In this document: positions 4,248 to 14,230 of the stretch, piece by piece | Layout: each line of letters opens with the position of its first letter | Position numbering within the stretch: the stretch's first letter is position 1 | From: a virus | Taxonomy: Duplodnaviria > Heunggongvirae > Uroviricota > Caudoviricetes | Length of the DNA: 22,209 bases | Direction: 5' to 3' (one strand) | Virus record (IMG/VR): IMGVR_UViG_2526164633_000039 | Program-made: the position numbers and the translations under genes | Notes under the pieces: model-generated | Seen by the model: only the letters and a program-made list of their open reading frames with translations | Database searches by the model: none | Told to the model about the DNA's origin: nothing

Positions 4248-4427
4248 TATCGCGTCCTCAACAATGAATTTTGTGATGCGATGCCTGGTGCCTCCAGGTG
4301 ACGTTAACCAGTTAACAATTAACGCCGGATACAGAGAATCCACCCATAACACTGTTTTTGGTTTTAACTGTTCCGCGTGCGCTCAGCCGCATTCACCACA
4401 TCACAAAATTCACTTTAAAAAGGGCGG

Positions 4428-4485
4428 CAGAGCAGTCACGGAGTAAAACTGATACCGCCAAACGTCACCAGAAAATTGATAACAG
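4428..4485 (-). ncRNA. dicF: DicF small regulatory RNA (ftsZ-targeting) with intrinsic terminator
   Basis: Reverse complement of 4433-4485 reads TTTCTGGTGACGTTTGGCGGTATCAGTTTTACTCCGTGACTGCTCTGCCGCCC followed by a T-run, matching the DicF sequence as I recall it. GGCGG...CCGCC forms the terminator stem. Confidence 0.65.
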
Positions 4486-5924: not shown

Positions 5925-5926
5925 AG

Positions 5927-5991
5927 TTAGGTAATTCTAATTTTTCTTGACTTAGGTATCCCGCGCACATTACTGTTAGGAATATCTAACA
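5927..5991. promoter_or_regulatory. Divergent promoter/operator region with palindromes TTAGGTAATTCTAA (5927-5940) and TGTTAGGAATATCTAACA (5974-5991)
   Basis: Inverted repeats with the same half-site as 5430-5481, lying between the divergent repressor and cro-like genes. A TTGACT -35-like hexamer sits at about 5947-5952. Confidence 0.45.
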
Positions 5992-6737: not shown

Positions 6738-7683
6738 ACGCCCACTGGTTATAAACACACAGCTTGCGATGAAGATTGGCTTAAATGAAGCCATTGTGTT
6801 GCAGCAGTTGCATTACTGGTTGAGAGATACCAGTTCCGGTATGGAATGTGACGGGGTTCGCTGGATTTATAACACAACAGAACAATGGCTGGAACAGTTC
6901 CCGTTCTGGTCAGAGTCAACGTTAAAACGCGCATTTGCAAGTCTGAAAACGCTGGGGCTTTTGCGTTGCGAAAAGCTCAACAAATCAAAGCGTGATATGA
7001 CTAATTTTTACACGATTAATTACGAGAGTGAGCTTTTAGATGGTGGCAAAGTGAGCGAATCCATCAGGTCAAAATGCGCCGCTCCATCGGGTCAAAATGA
7101 CACGATGGAAGAGGTCAAAATGGCACGCTCCATTGGTTCAAAACGACCCAATGTCATCGGGTCAAAATGGCCTGATGATCTTACAGAGAATACAACAGAG
7201 ATTACTACAGAGAATAAAAACACTTCTCGTCCGGAAGCTTCGCAACCGGACCCGCAGACGGCTGAACAGGATTTTTTAACCCGACACCCTGACGCGGTTG
7301 TGTTCAGTGCGAAAAAACGCCAGTGGGGAAGTCAGGAAGATTTGGCGTGCGCACAGTGGATCTGGGGACGAATCGTGAGTCTTTACGAGCAGGCTGCCAG
7401 CGATGATGGCGAGATCACGCGACCGAAAGAACCAAACTGGACCGCATGGGCCAATGACGTGCGCACAATGCGGATGCTGGATGGCAGAAGCCACAGACAA
7501 ATTTGCGAAATGTTTGGTCGGGTACAGCGAGATCCATTCTGGGTAAAAAACATCATGAGCCCGTCAAAGCTTCGCGAAAAATGGGACGACCTGGTCATCC
7601 GCCTGGGGCGTTCACCTGTACAGTGTTGTGTGAATCATATTTCTGAACCGGATACCGAAATTCCGCCTGGTTTCAGGGGATAA
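6718..7683 (+). CDS. Replication initiator, phage O-like, with origin iterons embedded in the coding sequence
   Basis: Start chosen at the ATG at 6718 (MSLLFAERPLVINTQLAMKIGLNEAIVLQQLHYWL, winged-helix-like N-terminus); alternative starts at 6664 and 6676. Contains five about 17-bp repeats at 23-bp spacing followed by an AT-rich tract, as in lambda O/ori. Confidence 0.6.
   Translation: MSLLFAERPLVINTQLAMKIGLNEAIVLQQLHYWLRDTSSGMECDGVRWIYNTTEQWLEQFPFWSESTLKRAFASLKTLGLLRCEKLNKSKRDMTNFYTINYESELLDGGKVSESIRSKCAAPSGQNDTMEEVKMARSIGSKRPNVIGSKWPDDLTENTTEITTENKNTSRPEASQPDPQTAEQDFLTRHPDAVVFSAKKRQWGSQEDLACAQWIWGRIVSLYEQAASDDGEITRPKEPNWTAWANDVRTMRMLDGRSHRQICEMFGRVQRDPFWVKNIMSPSKLREKWDDLVIRLGRSPVQCCVNHISEPDTEIPPGFRG
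7060..7169. repeat. Iteron array: five copies of about TCCATCGGGTCAAAATG at 23-bp periodicity (candidate replication origin)
   Basis: Copies start near 7060, 7083, 7106, 7129 and 7152 (TCCATCAGGTCAAAATG, TCCATCGGGTCAAAATG, GAAGAGGTCAAAATG, TCCATTGGTTCAAAACG, TCATCGGGTCAAAATG). An A/T-rich ACAGAGAATA-type tract follows at 7176-7240. Confidence 0.65.
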
Positions 7684-7723
7684 GTGGTGATTTTAGGGCA
7701 TAAAGTAATGTTCAGGAGGACTT

Positions 7724-8131
7724 ATGGCAAAAGTATTTACACAGGAAGAGCGGGAAAAAATTAAAGGACAGGTGGTGGAACTCGTGCGCCAGAGCGGTCG
7801 TGAGACGTTACGGCAACTGGAAGCTAAAACAGGTGCGACAAGATATCTGATGAGCGTTCTTGCCAGAGAGCTGGTTGCCAGTGGTGATGTATATCACTCT
7901 GGCTATGGGGTGTTCCCGTCAGAACGGGCTCGTAAGGACTGGCAAAACGCCCGCAAAAAACTCTCGAGGGCAAAGGTGAAGAAACCTGTTGTGGTTGATC
8001 CGGGCCTTATCTGGACATTACCCGACGGAGAAATACGCCGCTACGACAGGCGTATGAACATAATCTGTCGCGAGTGCCGGAAGAGCGAAGTTATGCAGCG
8101 TGTATTGGCGTTCTATCAGGGATATGCCTAG
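7724..8131 (+). CDS. Hypothetical 135-aa protein, possible winged-helix DNA-binding N-terminus
   Basis: Strong AGGAGGA RBS before the ATG at 7724. No confident family assignment. Confidence 0.5.
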   Translation: MAKVFTQEEREKIKGQVVELVRQSGRETLRQLEAKTGATRYLMSVLARELVASGDVYHSGYGVFPSERARKDWQNARKKLSRAKVKKPVVVDPGLIWTLPDGEIRRYDRRMNIICRECRKSEVMQRVLAFYQGYA

Positions 8132-8177
8132 AATTGTCACAGGTAATGAAATTAAAGAGTATTGGTTCGGATATGAA

Positions 8178-8206
8178 TTGACATTTTCGCGGCACAGAGC
8201 TAAAAA
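8178..8206 (+). promoter_or_regulatory. Candidate sigma70 promoter (TTGACA, 17-bp spacer, TAAAAA) directed toward the SIR2-like gene
   Basis: TTGACA at 8178-8183, 17-nt spacer, TAAAAA(T) at 8201-8207, about 290 bp upstream of the 8500 start codon inside an AT-rich non-coding stretch. Confidence 0.3.
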
Positions 8207-8499
8207 TAGCCTACTTGTTGGTTTTGTGTGAAAAGCAGACATTTTGAGGCTCAGGATTTGTTATCAAATAAGACCAATACTTATCTATATTAATACACAT
8301 TAAATACTGTGCAATACATTATTGCATTTTATTAGATAAGCGATATTTAGGGAAAAGAAAAGTCATAGAAAACAGGCCGCTATTTGTTGTTGGATTTTAT
8401 AGGCTATATCTAGATTATCTTGCCACTGCGGTCTCTGTTTACCTAACAGCTTGGGCTTCTTTGCATGCAAGTTTGTAATAACAAGAGTAATCAAACGGA

Positions 8500-9531
8500 A
8501 TGTCTATTAATCCTAAACTTAAGCGTATCGCGCGACGCTATCCAGCGTTATTCCAATATGAGTCCCCCTATATGGCAAGAAAATTAATAATATTCGGCAA
8601 CGGTCTCGGTATGGCTTTAGATCCTGCTCACTTCTCCTTAGACAGAGCGTTGGAAGAAATTTGGCATCGCCCCAATTTTTTAAAAGATATCCACAAGCAA
8701 CTTATCGAGCGTTGTCTTCAGCGGCAAGGTCCACCAGAAGGAGAACATGAGTTGGATACCCTTCACCAGGCTGTCACATATTGTAAAGCTCTTGCTCAAA
8801 TTGGAGAGGGGAACGTGCATTGGCTTACTGAAGATGGACTAAACTTCCCCAAAATTACCGCCACTTATATTCACAAAGTTGCAACCAGGTTGCATAATTA
8901 CGATAAAGGTTTGCCACAAAGATTCGAAAATGCGCTTGTGGAGTTTGTAAAGAACACACACTCACATATCGCGACATTAAACTATGACAAATTATTATAC
9001 AATTCATTCATAGATAATGATATATTCAACGGGTATGATGGGGTTTTAGTTGATGGGATGCTAAGCCACGGATTTTCCTCTGCAGCGCTCGAACGGAAAT
9101 ACAATCGTAGGTTTGGTTATTATTTGCACTTGCATGGTTCACCACTATTTATTAATCAGCATGAAAATGTTTTAAAACTTTCACGCTCACAACTTACTCT
9201 TGACATAGATGAACCTAGTGAGCATATAGTGTTAACTCATATAAAAAGAAAACCGTCAGTTATAGCAGCATCTAATGTTCTTTCTACGTACTGGGATTAT
9301 TTGCAGTTTGCATTATTTGAATCAGAAGAAATAATATTGTTTGGTTACTCTGGTCTCGATATTCACCTTAACCTGCTTATTCGACCTTACCTAACCTCTA
9401 AGCCTTTAAGAGTAATTGAGTGGAGCGGTGCTGGTGAACAAAACGCTCGTGAGATATATTGGAAAAACCAGTTGAGACGGGAAGTTACTGTAATTAGGTT
9501 GGATAACATCACTGATTTTATTGATTGGTAG
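8500..9531 (+). CDS. SIR2-like (sirtuin-fold, SIR2_2/DUF4020-type) protein, 343 aa; candidate NAD-consuming anti-phage defence effector
   Basis: Motifs read directly from the translation: glycine-rich IIFGNGLGMA (aa 30-39), IATLNYD (Asn161), YLHLHGS (His210/His212), ILFGYSGLDIHL (aa 279-290). These match the order and spacing of defence-associated SIR2 domains. Coding GC is far lower than the flanking prophage (about 32% in sampled 60-nt stretches). Confidence 0.65.
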   Translation: MSINPKLKRIARRYPALFQYESPYMARKLIIFGNGLGMALDPAHFSLDRALEEIWHRPNFLKDIHKQLIERCLQRQGPPEGEHELDTLHQAVTYCKALAQIGEGNVHWLTEDGLNFPKITATYIHKVATRLHNYDKGLPQRFENALVEFVKNTHSHIATLNYDKLLYNSFIDNDIFNGYDGVLVDGMLSHGFSSAALERKYNRRFGYYLHLHGSPLFINQHENVLKLSRSQLTLDIDEPSEHIVLTHIKRKPSVIAASNVLSTYWDYLQFALFESEEIILFGYSGLDIHLNLLIRPYLTSKPLRVIEWSGAGEQNAREIYWKNQLRREVTVIRLDNITDFIDW

Positions 9532-9601
9532 CGCAATGCGAAGTTAAAGAGGCAGCCTCATATTTATCAGAGCTGGTGTACGTCCAATACAGGAGGTTAT
9601 C

Positions 9602-9691
9602 GTGCTGGTTCTCAAATGCGCGCTGGCTATTGCGGCTGTAGTGGCAATTTATTGTCTTGCTATTGTTCTTATGGATCGCCTTTCTGATTGA
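9602..9691 (+). CDS. Small hydrophobic peptide (29 aa, GTG start), possible membrane-active type I toxin-like peptide
   Basis: Perfect AGGAGG at 9591-9596, 5 nt before the GTG at 9602. Translation (M)LVLKCALAIAAVVAIYCLAIVLMDRLSD is one predicted TM helix plus a short charged tail. Not in the ORF track (<60 aa). Confidence 0.4.
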   Translation: MLVLKCALAIAAVVAIYCLAIVLMDRLSD

Positions 9692-9902
9692 TTTTATATT
9701 GGCGAGGTGACGGGAGTTAAGTAGAATTGCTGCGGGTGCTTGAGGCTGTCTGCCTCGGGCATGCCACCGTAAGGCAGACAGAGAAAAGCCCCAGTTAACA
9801 TTACGCGTCCTGCAAGACGCTTAACATTAATCTGAGGCCCAATCTATGCTTCACAAACGTAGGTTAGCCTCTTACGCGCCGAAAGGCAAGGAGAAGCAGG
9901 CT

Positions 9903-10058
9903 ATGAAGCAGCAAAAGGCGATGTTAATCGCCCTGATCGTCATCTGTTTAACCGTCATAGTGACGGCACTGGTAACGAGGAAAGACCTCTGCGAGGTACG
10001 AATCCGAACCGGCCAGACGGAGGTCGCTGTCTTCACAGCTTACGAACCTGAGGAGTAA
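9903..10058 (+). CDS. hokD: Hok/Gef-family type I toxin (51 aa), HokD/RelF-like
   Basis: MKQQKAMLIALIVICLTVIVTALVTRKDLCEVRIRTGQTEVAVFTAYEPEE has the Hok TM segment and conserved Cys. An in-frame upstream extension from 9846 is mok-like. A perfect 10-bp leader hairpin lies at about 9745-9780. Confidence 0.8.
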   Translation: MKQQKAMLIALIVICLTVIVTALVTRKDLCEVRIRTGQTEVAVFTAYEPEE

Positions 10059-10126
10059 GAGACCAGGCGGGGGAGAAATCCCTCGCCACCGCTGATGTGT
10101 CAGGCATCCTCAACGCACCCGCACTT

Positions 10127-10150
10127 AACCCGCTTCGGCGGGTTTTTGTT
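10127..10150 (+). terminator. Rho-independent terminator downstream of hok
   Basis: AACCCGC-TTCG-GCGGGTT stem-loop followed by TTTTGTTTT. Confidence 0.6.
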
Positions 10151-10273
10151 TTATTTTCAACGCATTTGAAGTTCTGGACGGTGTCGGAATAGAATCAAAA
10201 ATACTTAAGTAGCGCGCAGGGATAAGAGGGATGGTCCCTTAAAGGGGAGAGCTAATTATCCGGAAGGATTCTG

Positions 10274-10525
10274 ATGATGAACATCGAAGAACTGCGTAAA
10301 ATTTTTTGTGAAGATGGCCTCTATGCTGTGTGCGTTGAAAATGGAAATATTGTTAGTCATTACCGCATTGTGTGTTTGCGAAAGAATGGGGCTGCGTTAA
10401 TTAATTTTGTGGATGGTCGAGTGACAGACGGATTTATCTTGCGCGAAGGTGAGTTTGTCACTTCATTACAGGCACTGAAAGAGATCGGAATAAAAGCTGG
10501 CTTTTCTGCTTTTTCAGAAGAATAA
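10274..10525 (+). CDS. rem: Hypothetical 83-aa protein, Rem-like (Qin prophage rem neighbour of hokD) by size and position
   Basis: GGAAGGA RBS before ATGATG at 10274. Lies immediately downstream of hok as in Qin. Identity rests on recollection and synteny. Confidence 0.45.
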   Translation: MMNIEELRKIFCEDGLYAVCVENGNIVSHYRIVCLRKNGAALINFVDGRVTDGFILREGEFVTSLQALKEIGIKAGFSAFSEE

Positions 10526-10591
10526 ACTCATCTACAATCTTGCGCGGGGCTGAACTCCCGCTGAGTAACACCGTGCCGCCGGAGGAAACCG

Positions 10592-10870
10592 ATGGCACGC
10601 AACGCAAAATATTACAATCATGATAATTCGACCGTTCTTGCCCACACGCACGAGCGGTATTCTCACGCATTTAAGTCAGACTGGTACCAGCATCCCCCAT
10701 GCACTGAAGAACAGGCCGAATGGCTCATTCAGTGTTACCGCAGGCGCGGATGCGAGGTTAAAAAAGCCCTTAGCCTCGACTACCGTCACTGGATAATCTC
10801 CGTCGGGCTTCCTTACTCCGAACGCCCACCGCGTCTGTCCCGCACATTCCAGCAACGCATCTGGAGGTAA
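10592..10870 (+). CDS. Hypothetical 92-aa protein
   Basis: Strong GGAGGA RBS before the ATG at 10592. Stop abuts the GTG start of the following gene. Confidence 0.5.
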   Translation: MARNAKYYNHDNSTVLAHTHERYSHAFKSDWYQHPPCTEEQAEWLIQCYRRRGCEVKKALSLDYRHWIISVGLPYSERPPRLSRTFQQRIWR

Positions 10871-11641: not shown

Positions 11642-13213
11642 TTACTGAGAGGTCAGATCAACTTTCCAGGGCAACAGATCGCGTACCCGGTTTGCCGGCC
11701 AATCCTGGATATGCTCAATGACGTAACGCAGCCATTTTTCTGGTTCCACATTGTTCAGACGGCATGTGCCGATCAGCGAGTACAACACCGCCGCATGTTC
11801 GCCACCGCTGTCGGAACCCGCGAACAGCCAGTTTTTCCGGCCTACGGCCACTCCCCGTAAGGCGTTCTCTGCGATGTTGTTGTCGATTTCCACCCAGCCA
11901 TTACTGCAGTACACGTTCAGGCCATCCCACTGTTTCAGCAGGTATGCGAACGCTTTTGCCGTATCCGAGTGACGCGACAGTGTTTTCATCTGAGTCTGTA
12001 TCCAGTCATACAGTGACTGCATCAGTGGCGCAGCTCTGGCTTTTCTTGCCGCCAGACGCTGTTCTGCTGTACATCCCCGGACTTCTGCCTCTATGGCATA
12101 CAGTTCACCGATACGCTGCAGGGCTTCCGTGGTGATGTCGGTGGGCACTCTTGCATGCACATCGTGGATTTTTCTCCGGGCATGAGCCATACACGCGGCT
12201 TCCGTTATTCTGCCGGATTCGTATAACACCCGGTAACCACCGTAAGCATCGGCCTGAAGCACACCGCTGTAACCGGCCAGATGATTTTGTGGATGGATAC
12301 CTTTCCGGTCCGGTGAGTACGCGAACCAGACCGCCGGGGGCATTTCCGAACCGGCGTTACGGTCATCACGGACGTAGACCCACAGCCGGGCGGTCCGGGT
12401 TTTACCGCTGCCCGGCTCCTGGACCGGGACGGGGATATCATCAGCATGGACTTTACCGGGCATCAGCACATACTGGCGCAGGACGTCATACAGCGGCTCC
12501 AGCAGTTCAGCAACGGCACCTGTCCAGCGCCCCAGCGTGGCGCGGCTCAGCTCCACGCCCTGGCGACGGTATATTTCTGACTGGCGGTATAACGGCAGAT
12601 GGTCTGCATATTTCCCGGTAACAACATGGGCCAGAAGCCCCGCTCCGGCATAACTGCGTGCAATGGGTTTTGAAGGTACTGTTGCCTGCACGATATGGTC
12701 GCACCGACAACAGGCCAGTTTCGGACGTTGTGTTTCGATAACCTTAAAGGCGCTGCTGATAAGCTCCAGTTGCTCTGACACATCACACCCCAGAGGACTG
12801 AGGTCACCACCACAGGCCGGGCAGCATTCCTCTTCCGGCCGGATGACCCGGGTTTCACGGGGAAGTGAGGCCGGTAACGGTTTACGGGCTGAAGACTGGC
12901 GCAGGGCGGATGGCAGTACCGGGTCATATTGCTCACCCAGCGTTTCCGCCATTTCTTCCTGAAGTGCGCTGATTCGCTCCTGTGCTTCCTGTATCTGCCG
13001 TTCGGTTTTAGCGCGAAGTTTTTCTGAGCTTTTACCGAACTGCATGCGCTGCAGTTTCGCAACCAGCGCCTTCAGCCGGTTGATTTCGGAAGCATAAGCC
13101 GCCACCCGCTGTGAGAGCAGGCGGTTGTATTTCGCCATCTGGCGGATGGTGTCCTGTTGCGTCTGCAACAGTGCCCGCAGGCGGGCATTCTCATGAGCAA
13201 GTGAGGTGTCCAT
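11642..13213 (-). CDS. tnpC: IS66-family transposase TnpC (523 aa)
   Basis: Intact ORF with N-terminal coiled-coil/leucine-zipper-like region, a Cys-rich zinc-finger region (CPACGG...CCRCDH) and conserved IS66 transposase core. Confidence 0.9.
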
Positions 13214-13232
13214 ATCCTCACTTTACAACGGG

Positions 13233-13580
13233 TTATATGCGGATGCCAGCGCGTTCCGTTCGTTTCGGGTGCTTCCAGTCGATGCCTTCGAGAAGCATGG
13301 ACAACTGAGCCGGAGTAAGGTGAACCTTTCCATCGCGGGTGACCGGCCAGACGAAGCGGCCCCGCTCCAGGCGTTTGGTGAAGAGGCACAGTCCGTCACT
13401 GTCAGCCCACAGCACTTTTATCTGGTCACCCCGGCGTCCGCGGAAGATGAACAGATGCCCGGAGAACGGGTCATCCTTCAGGACGTTCTGAACTTTTGAG
13501 GCCAGGCCGTTAAAGCCATTTCGCATATCGGTGATACCGGCAACCAGCCAGATACGCGAACCGGCAGGGAGAGATATCAT
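13233..13580 (-). CDS. tnpB: IS66-family accessory protein TnpB (Orf2, 115 aa)
   Basis: MISLPAGSRIWLVAGITDMRNGFNGLASKVQ... is typical IS66 Orf2. Start overlaps the tnpA stop. Confidence 0.9.
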   Translation of the reverse strand: MISLPAGSRIWLVAGITDMRNGFNGLASKVQNVLKDDPFSGHLFIFRGRRGDQIKVLWADSDGLCLFTKRLERGRFVWPVTRDGKVHLTPAQLSMLLEGIDWKHPKRTERAGIRI

Positions 13581-14230
13581 CAGTGGCTGCTCCCTTTCAT
13601 TTCGCGGATAAGTGTCTGTAATAACGCCGGTGTCAGTTCACCTTTCAGCCTGAGAGTTCCGGCCGGCAGAACCAGCTCGCAGCACAGACTGTCTGGCAGT
13701 GTATTTATCTGTTCAGGTATCTGCACTGGTGCCGGGATTTTATTATCCGGCTCCGGAGTTAACGTCACGGGAAGTAGCGATGTTTCATGTTCGCCGGGCG
13801 GTTGCAGGCCACCGTTACGCCAGAGATGCCGCCAGTTAAAGAGCAGGTTATCGTTAATTCCATTCTCTCGAGCTATTTGTGCGACACAGGCACCGGGTAA
13901 AAGAGTTTGCTGAACCAGTCTCCATTTAAACTCCGGTGAAAATCGGTTCCGGCGGGGTTTCTCTGCTTTCACAGGCTGAGTCACGGTCGGGGCTGAAGGG
14001 TATCGCCCCGGGAAAAGAGCCCGGGCCAGTTGCCCGCAGGAATATTCACCGGAAAGAGGCCAGTCAGTGAATACCTGGTGAAATCGCCTCACCAGAGAAA
14101 AAATGGCGGTTTTGCTGACACCAGTCTGCGCAGAAATGCGCGGGTACGACAGTGACTCGTCAAATCTCAGCTGTAGCACACGCAGGATCAATTCTGGATT
14201 ATCTGCCAGTACCGCTTTTCGTGCATTCAT
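13580..14230 (-). CDS. tnpA: IS66-family accessory protein TnpA (Orf1, 216 aa as drawn; a shorter internal start is possible)
   Basis: First ORF of the element, with an HTH-like N-terminus. ATG at 14228-14230. Confidence 0.75.
   Translation of the reverse strand: MNARKAVLADNPELILRVLQLRFDESLSYPRISAQTGVSKTAIFSLVRRFHQVFTDWPLSGEYSCGQLARALFPGRYPSAPTVTQPVKAEKPRRNRFSPEFKWRLVQQTLLPGACVAQIARENGINDNLLFNWRHLWRNGGLQPPGEHETSLLPVTLTPEPDNKIPAPVQIPEQINTLPDSLCCELVLPAGTLRLKGELTPALLQTLIREMKGSSH

Follow-up and report, generated by a model that had tools for sequence, protein, structure and literature searches.

Probable two-part architecture of the DNA upstream of a prophage SIR2-family gene: a phage backbone element joined to a mobile cassette

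Genes of the locus and the variable slot between DUF977 and hok/sok

The window, by which we mean the whole stretch of 22,209 nucleotides analysed here, represents a Rac/Qin-like lambdoid prophage integrated beside yccA, and its positions 7600-9700 are 100% identical to the corresponding region of E. coli O111:H2 strain 12A. The gene order leads from a Cro/CI-family gene through a YdaT-family gene, a replisome-organiser-like gene and a DUF977 gene to a gap of 440 bp and a SIR2-family gene, after which come sok/hokD and then rem and nin-like genes. The DUF977 gene (7724-8131, + strand; Pfam PF06163, E = 1.7e-29, and annotated as such by RefSeq at the identical 12A locus) is the final gene of the replication, or early-right, module of the prophage. 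The SIR2 gene, of the SIR2_2/DUF4917 type (Pfam PF13289), occupies 8572-9531 (+) and encodes 319 amino acids when counted from the RefSeq start, which is also the family-wide methionine. The sok/hokD type I toxin-antitoxin locus lies at 9734-9908 (+; Rfam RF01794, 116 bits, with hokD annotated). DUF977 and sok/hokD are the left and right flanks, respectively, of a cargo slot that SIR2 occupies in this prophage. The literature on DUF977, DUF4917, WP_000101550 and lambdoid hotspots yielded nothing about a DUF977-SIR2 locus.

Several other elements were recognised elsewhere in the window. Rfam matches above the gathering scores include the DicF small RNA at 4422-4473 (-) and, at 17239-17485 (+) and 17564-17754 (+), three phage-borne tRNA genes together with an STnc100 small RNA. 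A sub-threshold match to the Hfq-binding small RNA isrK (24.9 bits; gathering score 50) covers 10067-10148, between hokD and rem, and its end forms a strong hairpin of the terminator type (10127-10144). An IS66-family element is present in two copies about 9.4 kb apart (11642-14230 and 21013-22209), recognised by their repeated minus-strand ORF pattern; since 12A has no IS at the first of these positions, the DUF968 region of the strain behind the window carries an extra IS insertion.

The 440-bp gap between DUF977 and SIR2 has a GC content of 35.7% at 8132-8243 and 33.2% at 8244-8499, compared with 50% for the window, so the AT-richness that the original prediction had ascribed to it is real. 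It also holds no ORF of size, as had been claimed: the longest encodes 43 amino acids, and none is conserved.

The gap is not a single unit in related prophages. Using 8132-8571 as the BLAST query against 5,426 complete E. coli genomes, we retrieved matches in 1,035 genomes, and the entire stretch was found in only 46 of them. Thirty of these 46 are 98.9-100% identical to the window, and the other 16 carry a second allele with 78.5% identity. Lysogens with the allele of the window include E. coli O111:H2 12A and O55:H7 CB9615. This second allele (represented by L050 from E. coli KSC1031, with 15 other genomes, and called allele b below) sits in the same prophage slot, with about 89% protein identity and 78.5% identity upstream of the gene; its 3' sequence is longer by about 90 nt, and an ISEsa1 element is inserted downstream. 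Some 990 genomes without SIR2 match only 8143/8151-8243, with 75-79% identity, and have other cargo behind this segment. The segment 8143-8243 (+) is a conserved piece of phage backbone 3' of DUF977, as delimited by BLAST against the E. coli genomes, by alignment and in viral contigs, and it ends at a sharp junction after ...AAGCAGACATT. At this left cargo junction the conserved sequence reads ...GCGGACAT(T); the right junction varies with the cargo. In the window, backbone homology stops at 8243 and picks up again at 9549, 17 nt past the SIR2 stop codon.

When viral contigs were scanned for the element by pattern, 115 copies proved usable, and the sequences at their cargo junctions are of at least 11 kinds; the number of different inserts in the slot between DUF977 and hok/sok is at least 11 as well. 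In E. coli genomes the cargo consists of a DUF5677 gene, of QueH, of QueH with a hypothetical gene and a KwaB-like gene, or of two hypothetical genes; phage Tritos carries a 444-aa gene on the opposite strand; and the viral contigs hold cargo assigned by PADLOC to Tmn, PDC-M68B, Hp1/Hp2 and PDC-S15, in addition to NUDIX/HAD and LysR genes. The DUF977-hok/sok interval is a hotspot of variable cargo, in which defence genes are numerous. A 12-nt direct repeat at 8148 and 9540 was considered as a target-site duplication and discarded, because it extends across the junction and is no more than expected by chance.

The slot resembles the system of PMC9122126, published in 2022. As there, conserved flanks surround highly variable cargo, much of the cargo matches known or candidate anti-phage systems (here Tmn, PDC-M68B, Hp1/Hp2, PDC-S15, KwaB-like and SIR2), and relatives of the same SIR2 gene adjoin a P2-type ogr gene in Pantoea-like genomes. 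However, both the phage type (Rac/Qin-like lambdoid) and the position (DUF977-hok/sok) differ from those of that system, and the slot also holds non-defence genes, namely QueH, NUDIX/HAD and a LysR regulator.

A promoter-like site within the phage backbone

The original prediction placed a near-consensus promoter, made up of TTGACA, a 17-nt spacer and TAAAAA(T), ahead of the SIR2 gene. This sequence is present as described at 8178-8207 (+), with TTGACA at 8178-8183. Its -10 element can be read in two ways: TAAAAA (8201-8206) follows a 17-nt spacer and matches 4/6 consensus positions with the -7 T missing, and AAAAAT (8202-8207) follows an 18-nt spacer, also matches 4/6 and has both A-11 and T-7. 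In the arrangement TTGACA-18-AAAAAT the site combines hexamers near TTGACA/TATAAT, a spacer of 16-18 nt, A-11 and T-7, as looked for in a sigma-70 promoter. With 10/12 matches it has the top score of the consensus scan in 7000-10500 and is, in this allele, the better consensus match of the two candidate promoters discussed here. Sites scoring at least 10/12 occur twice in the whole 22-kb window when both strands are counted, compared with 3.1 +/- 1.7 in first-order Markov shuffles, and the shuffles give a probability of 0.14 for at least one such site on the + strand of the 440-nt gap; therefore, the match alone is not beyond chance. Since the backbone segment is common to prophages with other cargo, the site is a feature of the phage backbone at the left edge of the hotspot. 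The predicted promoter thus has in its favour a perfect -35, a -10 of acceptable quality, its orientation towards the gene and an uninterrupted path to it (the scan found no + strand terminator-like site between 8131 and 8572), whereas its score lies within chance and its DNA is backbone rather than cargo. A promoter at 8178-8207 is a plausible candidate, judged from its sequence.

Among the relatives collected by BLAST, the -35 TTGACA is invariant, and the whole 100 bp is similarly conserved, spacer included. Most variants read TAGAGC, TTGAGC, GAGAGC or TAGCGC at the -10 position, with the -7 T missing. The variants linked to SIR2 are nearer to the -10 consensus, with TAAAAAT in the window and TAGAACT in allele b, as against TAGAGCT where other cargo follows. 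From these motifs it is possible that the backbone element acts as a promoter, and this would be likeliest in the allele of the window.

The same element contains a weaker promoter-like site facing the first one on the - strand (8203-8232; TTCACA-18 nt-TATTTT, 9/12 in the scan), at which relatives carry TTGACA. An imperfect inverted repeat, GTTGGTTT-8 nt-AAGCAGAC, lies at the backbone/cargo junction (8217-8240, +). On folding, the corresponding hairpin is weak in the window (-5.7 kcal/mol) and in the commonest variant (-6.8); two variants form a strong one (-17.3 and -16.5 kcal/mol), and allele b forms none. Across the nested inverted repeats at the junction 90% of cells are paired, with a covariation that lacks significance, being reached in 78 of 500 shuffles. 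A conserved hairpin or pseudoknot at the junction was rejected on account of this covariation result and of a fold that is weak or absent in several variants, including the window. Visual inspection of the backbone element and of 8303-8325 for sigma-54 and LexA boxes gave half matches only.

It is possible, if somewhat unlikely, that 8143-8243 is not a promoter at all and supplies the early operon with a 3' end or processing signal, or serves as a protein-binding site or simply as a block of recombination homology, SIR2 being transcribed from its own promoter and by read-through. Such a role would fit the even conservation of the whole 100 bp, which is not confined to the hexamers, the poor -10 of most variants, the facing TTGACA motifs on both strands, the nested inverted repeats, and the combination of a sharp left junction with a variable right one. 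However, no terminator-like fold was found in the backbone element, the hairpin is neither kept in all variants nor accompanied by significant covariation, and no known motif was recognised in the element.

The mobile SIR2 cassette, its conserved motif and its leader

By comparison with other prophages, the SIR2 cassette is delimited to 8244-9548 (+) and comprises a low-GC upstream region, the gene and 17 nt past the stop codon. Homologues of the SIR2 protein with 71-91% identity occur in other genomic settings, and the upstream region 8244-8571 recurs with the gene in at least four unrelated genomic contexts. In the non-E. coli chromosome L036 the cassette adjoins TacA/GNAT toxin-antitoxin genes and its flanks are not those of E. 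coli; in the Pantoea-like genomes L040, L041 and L048 it lies between TetR/SDR genes and a P2-type ogr gene; L043 provides a fourth separate context; in L045 it adjoins a VCH_CASS14 gene; and L189 and L190 come from metagenomes. In all of these (L036, L040, L041, L043, L045, L048, L189 and L190), 150-330 bp upstream of the gene align with 8244-8571. Further SIR2 cassettes were sought in phage and plasmid collections and none was found.

The most conserved non-coding feature of the cassettes is a motif consisting of TTGAAT/C, a spacer of exactly 17 nt and TAnnTT, which is present in seven lineages (L036, L040, L041, L043, L045, L048 and L189). Its -10 variants read TATTTT, TAGGTT, TATATT, TACTTT, TAGTTT and, in L189, TAATCT. 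Across nine lineages with shared ancestry, 6/12 positions are invariant in the hexamers compared with 8/67 in the spacer and flanks (Fisher p = 0.005). Conservation of the hexamers above their surroundings is the pattern expected of a working sigma-70 promoter. The homology of L045 to the other cassettes begins at the -35. The upstream regions of more distant homologues (L193, L194, L195 and L258) cannot be aligned, and the motif is missing from them.

In the window the corresponding candidate promoter lies at 8322-8349 (+), with TTGCAT (8322-8327), a 16-nt spacer and TATTTA (8344-8349). It matches only 6/12 consensus positions, one spacer base and the -7 T having been lost, and allele b shares the spacer deletion and has a -10 of TATTTG, also without the -7 T. 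The cassette promoter may thus be inactive here. The ancestral promoter of the gene would lie inside the supposed leader and may be weak in the E. coli prophages. From the predicted transcription start, at about 8356, the 5' UTR would measure about 145 nt if translation began at 8500 and about 215 nt if it began at 8572. Three other elements proposed for this region were rejected. A palindrome, TGCAATAcatTATTGCA (8310-8326), overlaps the cassette -35 and is not kept in L036 or the Pantoea group. For the conserved G(C/T)AATATCGAG block (about 8473-8490), considered as a second proximal promoter, there is no -35 at a usable spacing. A CI-operator-like half-site, TTACCTAACAG (8439-8449), also occurs in the non-prophage L036, and about 0.5 such 9-mer matches to the immunity region are expected by chance. 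Read on the other strand, TTACCTAACAG corresponds to GTTAGGTAA / CTGTTAGG, motifs that are repeated in the repressor-cro intergenic region (5926-5934 and 5973-5980) and are likely operators there.

The degradation of the cassette motif in both E. coli alleles leaves room for the original view, in which the backbone site at 8178-8207 is the sole SIR2 promoter and a single AT-rich leader of 290-365 nt is a target of H-NS or other regulation. The site matches the consensus better than any other in the region, has a perfect -35 and is not separated from the gene by a terminator; its -10 in the window (TAAAAAT) and, less so, in allele b (TAGAACT) is nearer to consensus than the TAGAGCT of backbones with other cargo; and the GC content is 33%. 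Against this, the match is within chance (P = 0.14), the -10 is poor in most variants, and the element is common to prophages with unrelated cargo, including cargo on the opposite strand. Moreover, in contexts without the TTGACA site SIR2 is still preceded by about 330 bp of DNA of its own, which contains the conserved motif. We consider it unlikely that the backbone site acts alone. The length of the leader is affected as well: the predicted figure of about 290 nt holds for a start codon at 8500 and becomes about 365 nt from 8572, and the notion of a single long leader is doubtful because a second conserved promoter-like motif, 8322-8349, lies inside the region.

The left boundary of the cassette is somewhat blurred by two copies outside prophages. 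In L036 the cassette begins about 27 nt further left, at about 8217, with homology that covers L036 2735-4085 only. In both L036 (2735-2760) and L043 (about 95-150) the final 27-60 nt of the backbone element (GTCTGCTTTGTGCCAGAAGCGGACATT) are retained, and the boundary 8243/8244 is therefore less clean. This retained end suggests either export of the cassette out of the prophage slot or a motif that is part of the cassettes themselves.

Integron gene cassettes carry an attC recombination site at their 3' end and normally have no promoter. This type of element was considered because of the VCH_CASS14 neighbour in L045, and it was rejected: the 17 nt after the stop codon leave no room for attC, the junctions do not fit GTTRRRY, and the cassette has a long upstream region.

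A cis-acting regulatory RNA (a riboswitch, a thermosensor or the target of a small RNA), or a small RNA controlling a toxic NADase, would account for the fact that, across genera, the gene is accompanied by about 250 conserved non-coding nucleotides, and the start region of 8572 (8573-8584) has a complement in the 12-nt stretch 8414-8425. However, this stretch is a window-specific insertion that is missing in L036 and altered in L050, and the long-range pairing was discarded as a candidate. A riboregulator in the leader had also been suggested, and no structural result supports it. Rfam gave no match at E <= 1 from DUF977 to the SIR2 stop, and across 7500-10600 at the same threshold only sok and sub-threshold isrK-like, rsmX and ceN48 matches, all downstream of SIR2. 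The prophage small RNA svsR is located at the 3' end of cI (PMC12803456) and not in the gap region, and was dropped as a candidate. Folding of the leader, which had been proposed as a check, was no better than that of shuffled sequences (z = -0.68 for 8213-8520 and -0.09 for 8356-8595), and RNAalifold on seven homologous leaders gave a consensus of 5 pairs at -2.77 kcal/mol. The leader has no conserved RNA structure, and it is about 65 nt shorter in L045. Control by an RNA element is very improbable.

Silencing by H-NS was the other proposal for the leader. H-NS silences horizontally acquired, AT-rich genes in Enterobacteriaceae. SIR2 resembles such genes in being horizontally acquired and in having 33-39% GC within a region of about 50% GC, composition being the sole feature shared. 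Silencing of the SIR2 region is compatible with its base composition alone (33% GC upstream).

The start codon that had been assumed, 8500, is probably 72 nt too far upstream, and the true one at 8572. Most of the 120 best homologues listed are 319-320 aa long with the Met of 8572 as the start, and in many genera a stop codon stands 2-10 codons upstream of this Met. An invariant, Shine-Dalgarno-like GAG lies 10-12 nt upstream of ATG 8572, within AAGGAGG in Citrobacter, GGGAG in Serratia and AAGAGG in the Pantoea group.

Between the two ATGs lies an in-frame extension of 24 codons, MSINPKLKRIARRYPALFQYESPY (8500-8571, +), with the clade-conserved motif R-x-x-L-R-Y-P-x-L-F in the protein alignment. 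Exactly 24 extra in-frame codons are found in a subclade that includes enteric bacteria as well as some sequences from metagenomes, with identities as low as 73%. LRYPxLF is encoded by different codons in L258, L195 and L189, with third-position changes in the R-Y-P codons, and the ratio of synonymous to non-synonymous changes is 87/221 in frame compared with 58/285 and 47/293 in the other frames and 626/318 in the core. The R-Y-P changes and the frame ratio suggest that the extension is translated under a constraint much weaker than that on the core. The extension is interrupted by a stop codon in Pantoea L041 and is without a start codon in Serratia L042; it is therefore dispensable. AlphaFold predicts residues 1-24 to be disordered (pLDDT <50). 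The extension could provide a longer isoform or a leader peptide. A small ORF in another frame (8465-8587) was rejected, with a stop in L043 and no coding signal.

Two further readings, which we jointly judge quite improbable, would give these elements larger roles. In the first, the backbone element of about 100 bp may be a dedicated platform for cargo in Rac/Qin-like prophages, a shared promoter with a 5' stem-loop at a fixed junction that would express whatever defence cassette is recombined in behind it, pieces of the element being exported with cassettes as in L036 and L043. In the second, the LRYPxLF extension would yield two isoforms, or a leader peptide, that gate the toxic NADase activity or the translation of SIR2.

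The SIR2 protein, related systems and the two-part reading

The SIR2 protein is a single SIR2_2 domain of 319-343 aa. PADLOC gave weak matches to Aga_SIR2 and PDC-S21 (E about 1e-5 to 1e-6), and no sequence matches were found in NCBIfam or the PDB. The structural model, with a mean pLDDT of 70.8, has its best fold match in 8uae_B, the SIR2 of SIR2-HerA/Nezha (E = 7e-9, TM 0.56), and a further match in 8btp_A, ThsA (E = 6e-5), with identities of only 14-18%. SIR2-HerA (Nezha) and ThsA of Thoeris are thus the closest structures to the predicted protein. The NYD and HLHGS motifs, which we take to be those of the catalytic Asn and His of defence SIR2 NADases, are invariant in the protein alignment. 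No partner gene or domain (HerA, ThsB, SLOG or pAgo/APAZ) was found beside SIR2 or fused to it, the neighbours being DUF977 and hokD. In this the gene differs from SIR2-HerA, Thoeris and pAgo-SIR2 systems, since it stands without a partner gene.

Morons are extra genes in lambdoid phages that have their own promoter and are expressed from the prophage (Hendrix, Juhala and colleagues). SIR2 resembles them in several respects: it is present or absent among related prophages (46 of 1,035 genomes with the backbone element), its GC content of 33-39%, compared with 50%, is below that of the surrounding phage genes, and it sits between two conserved phage modules with a conserved promoter-like motif of its own. 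It differs from them in missing its own terminator, with 17 nt between the stop codon and the backbone and no terminator-like site before 9626, and in the degraded state of the promoter motif in this allele. The SIR2 upstream region is an ordinary moron-type promoter region in which two units had been read as one.

We favour, with a probability of about 0.6, an origin of the 440-bp gap and the DNA upstream of SIR2 in two parts, the tail of the replication module and a mobile cassette with its own promoter. The first quarter (8132-8243) would be the conserved tail of the early-right/replication module and the left edge of the slot, which happens to hold TTGACA-N17/18-TAAAAAT. The remaining three quarters (8244-8571) would be part of the mobile SIR2 cassette of about 1.3 kb. 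The cassette would supply a sigma-70 promoter, located at 8322-8349 in the window and ancestrally of the form TTGAAT-17-TAnnTT, followed by about 150-215 nt of AT-rich 5' UTR without structure. It would also supply two in-frame starts, the family-wide ATG 8572 with its GAG remnant of a Shine-Dalgarno sequence and the clade-specific ATG 8500, which adds 24 residues with LRYPxLF. Anatomy, boundaries, conservation and the absence of RNA structure are shown by the comparisons above, while the activity of both candidate promoters, for which we rely on consensus and conservation, the choice of start site and any influence of H-NS are our inference. In the lysogen, SIR2 would be transcribed from one or both of these constitutive-type promoters, and during lytic growth read-through from the early-right operon would add to its transcription, because there is no terminator in between. 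As the cassette promoter has lost a spacer base and the -7 T and the backbone -10 is better here, the backbone site may contribute more in this allele than elsewhere.

This two-part reading would leave the understanding of promoters and leaders unchanged. If it is correct, the gene would be annotated with a start at 8572 and a possible longer isoform from 8500, and its regulatory DNA would be the 330 bp that travel with it, the consensus promoter being a feature of the phage backbone. For tests of SIR2 in phage defence, the fragment to clone would be 8132-9548 and not the ORF alone. Finally, the DUF977-hok/sok slot would be useful for mining new defence systems.
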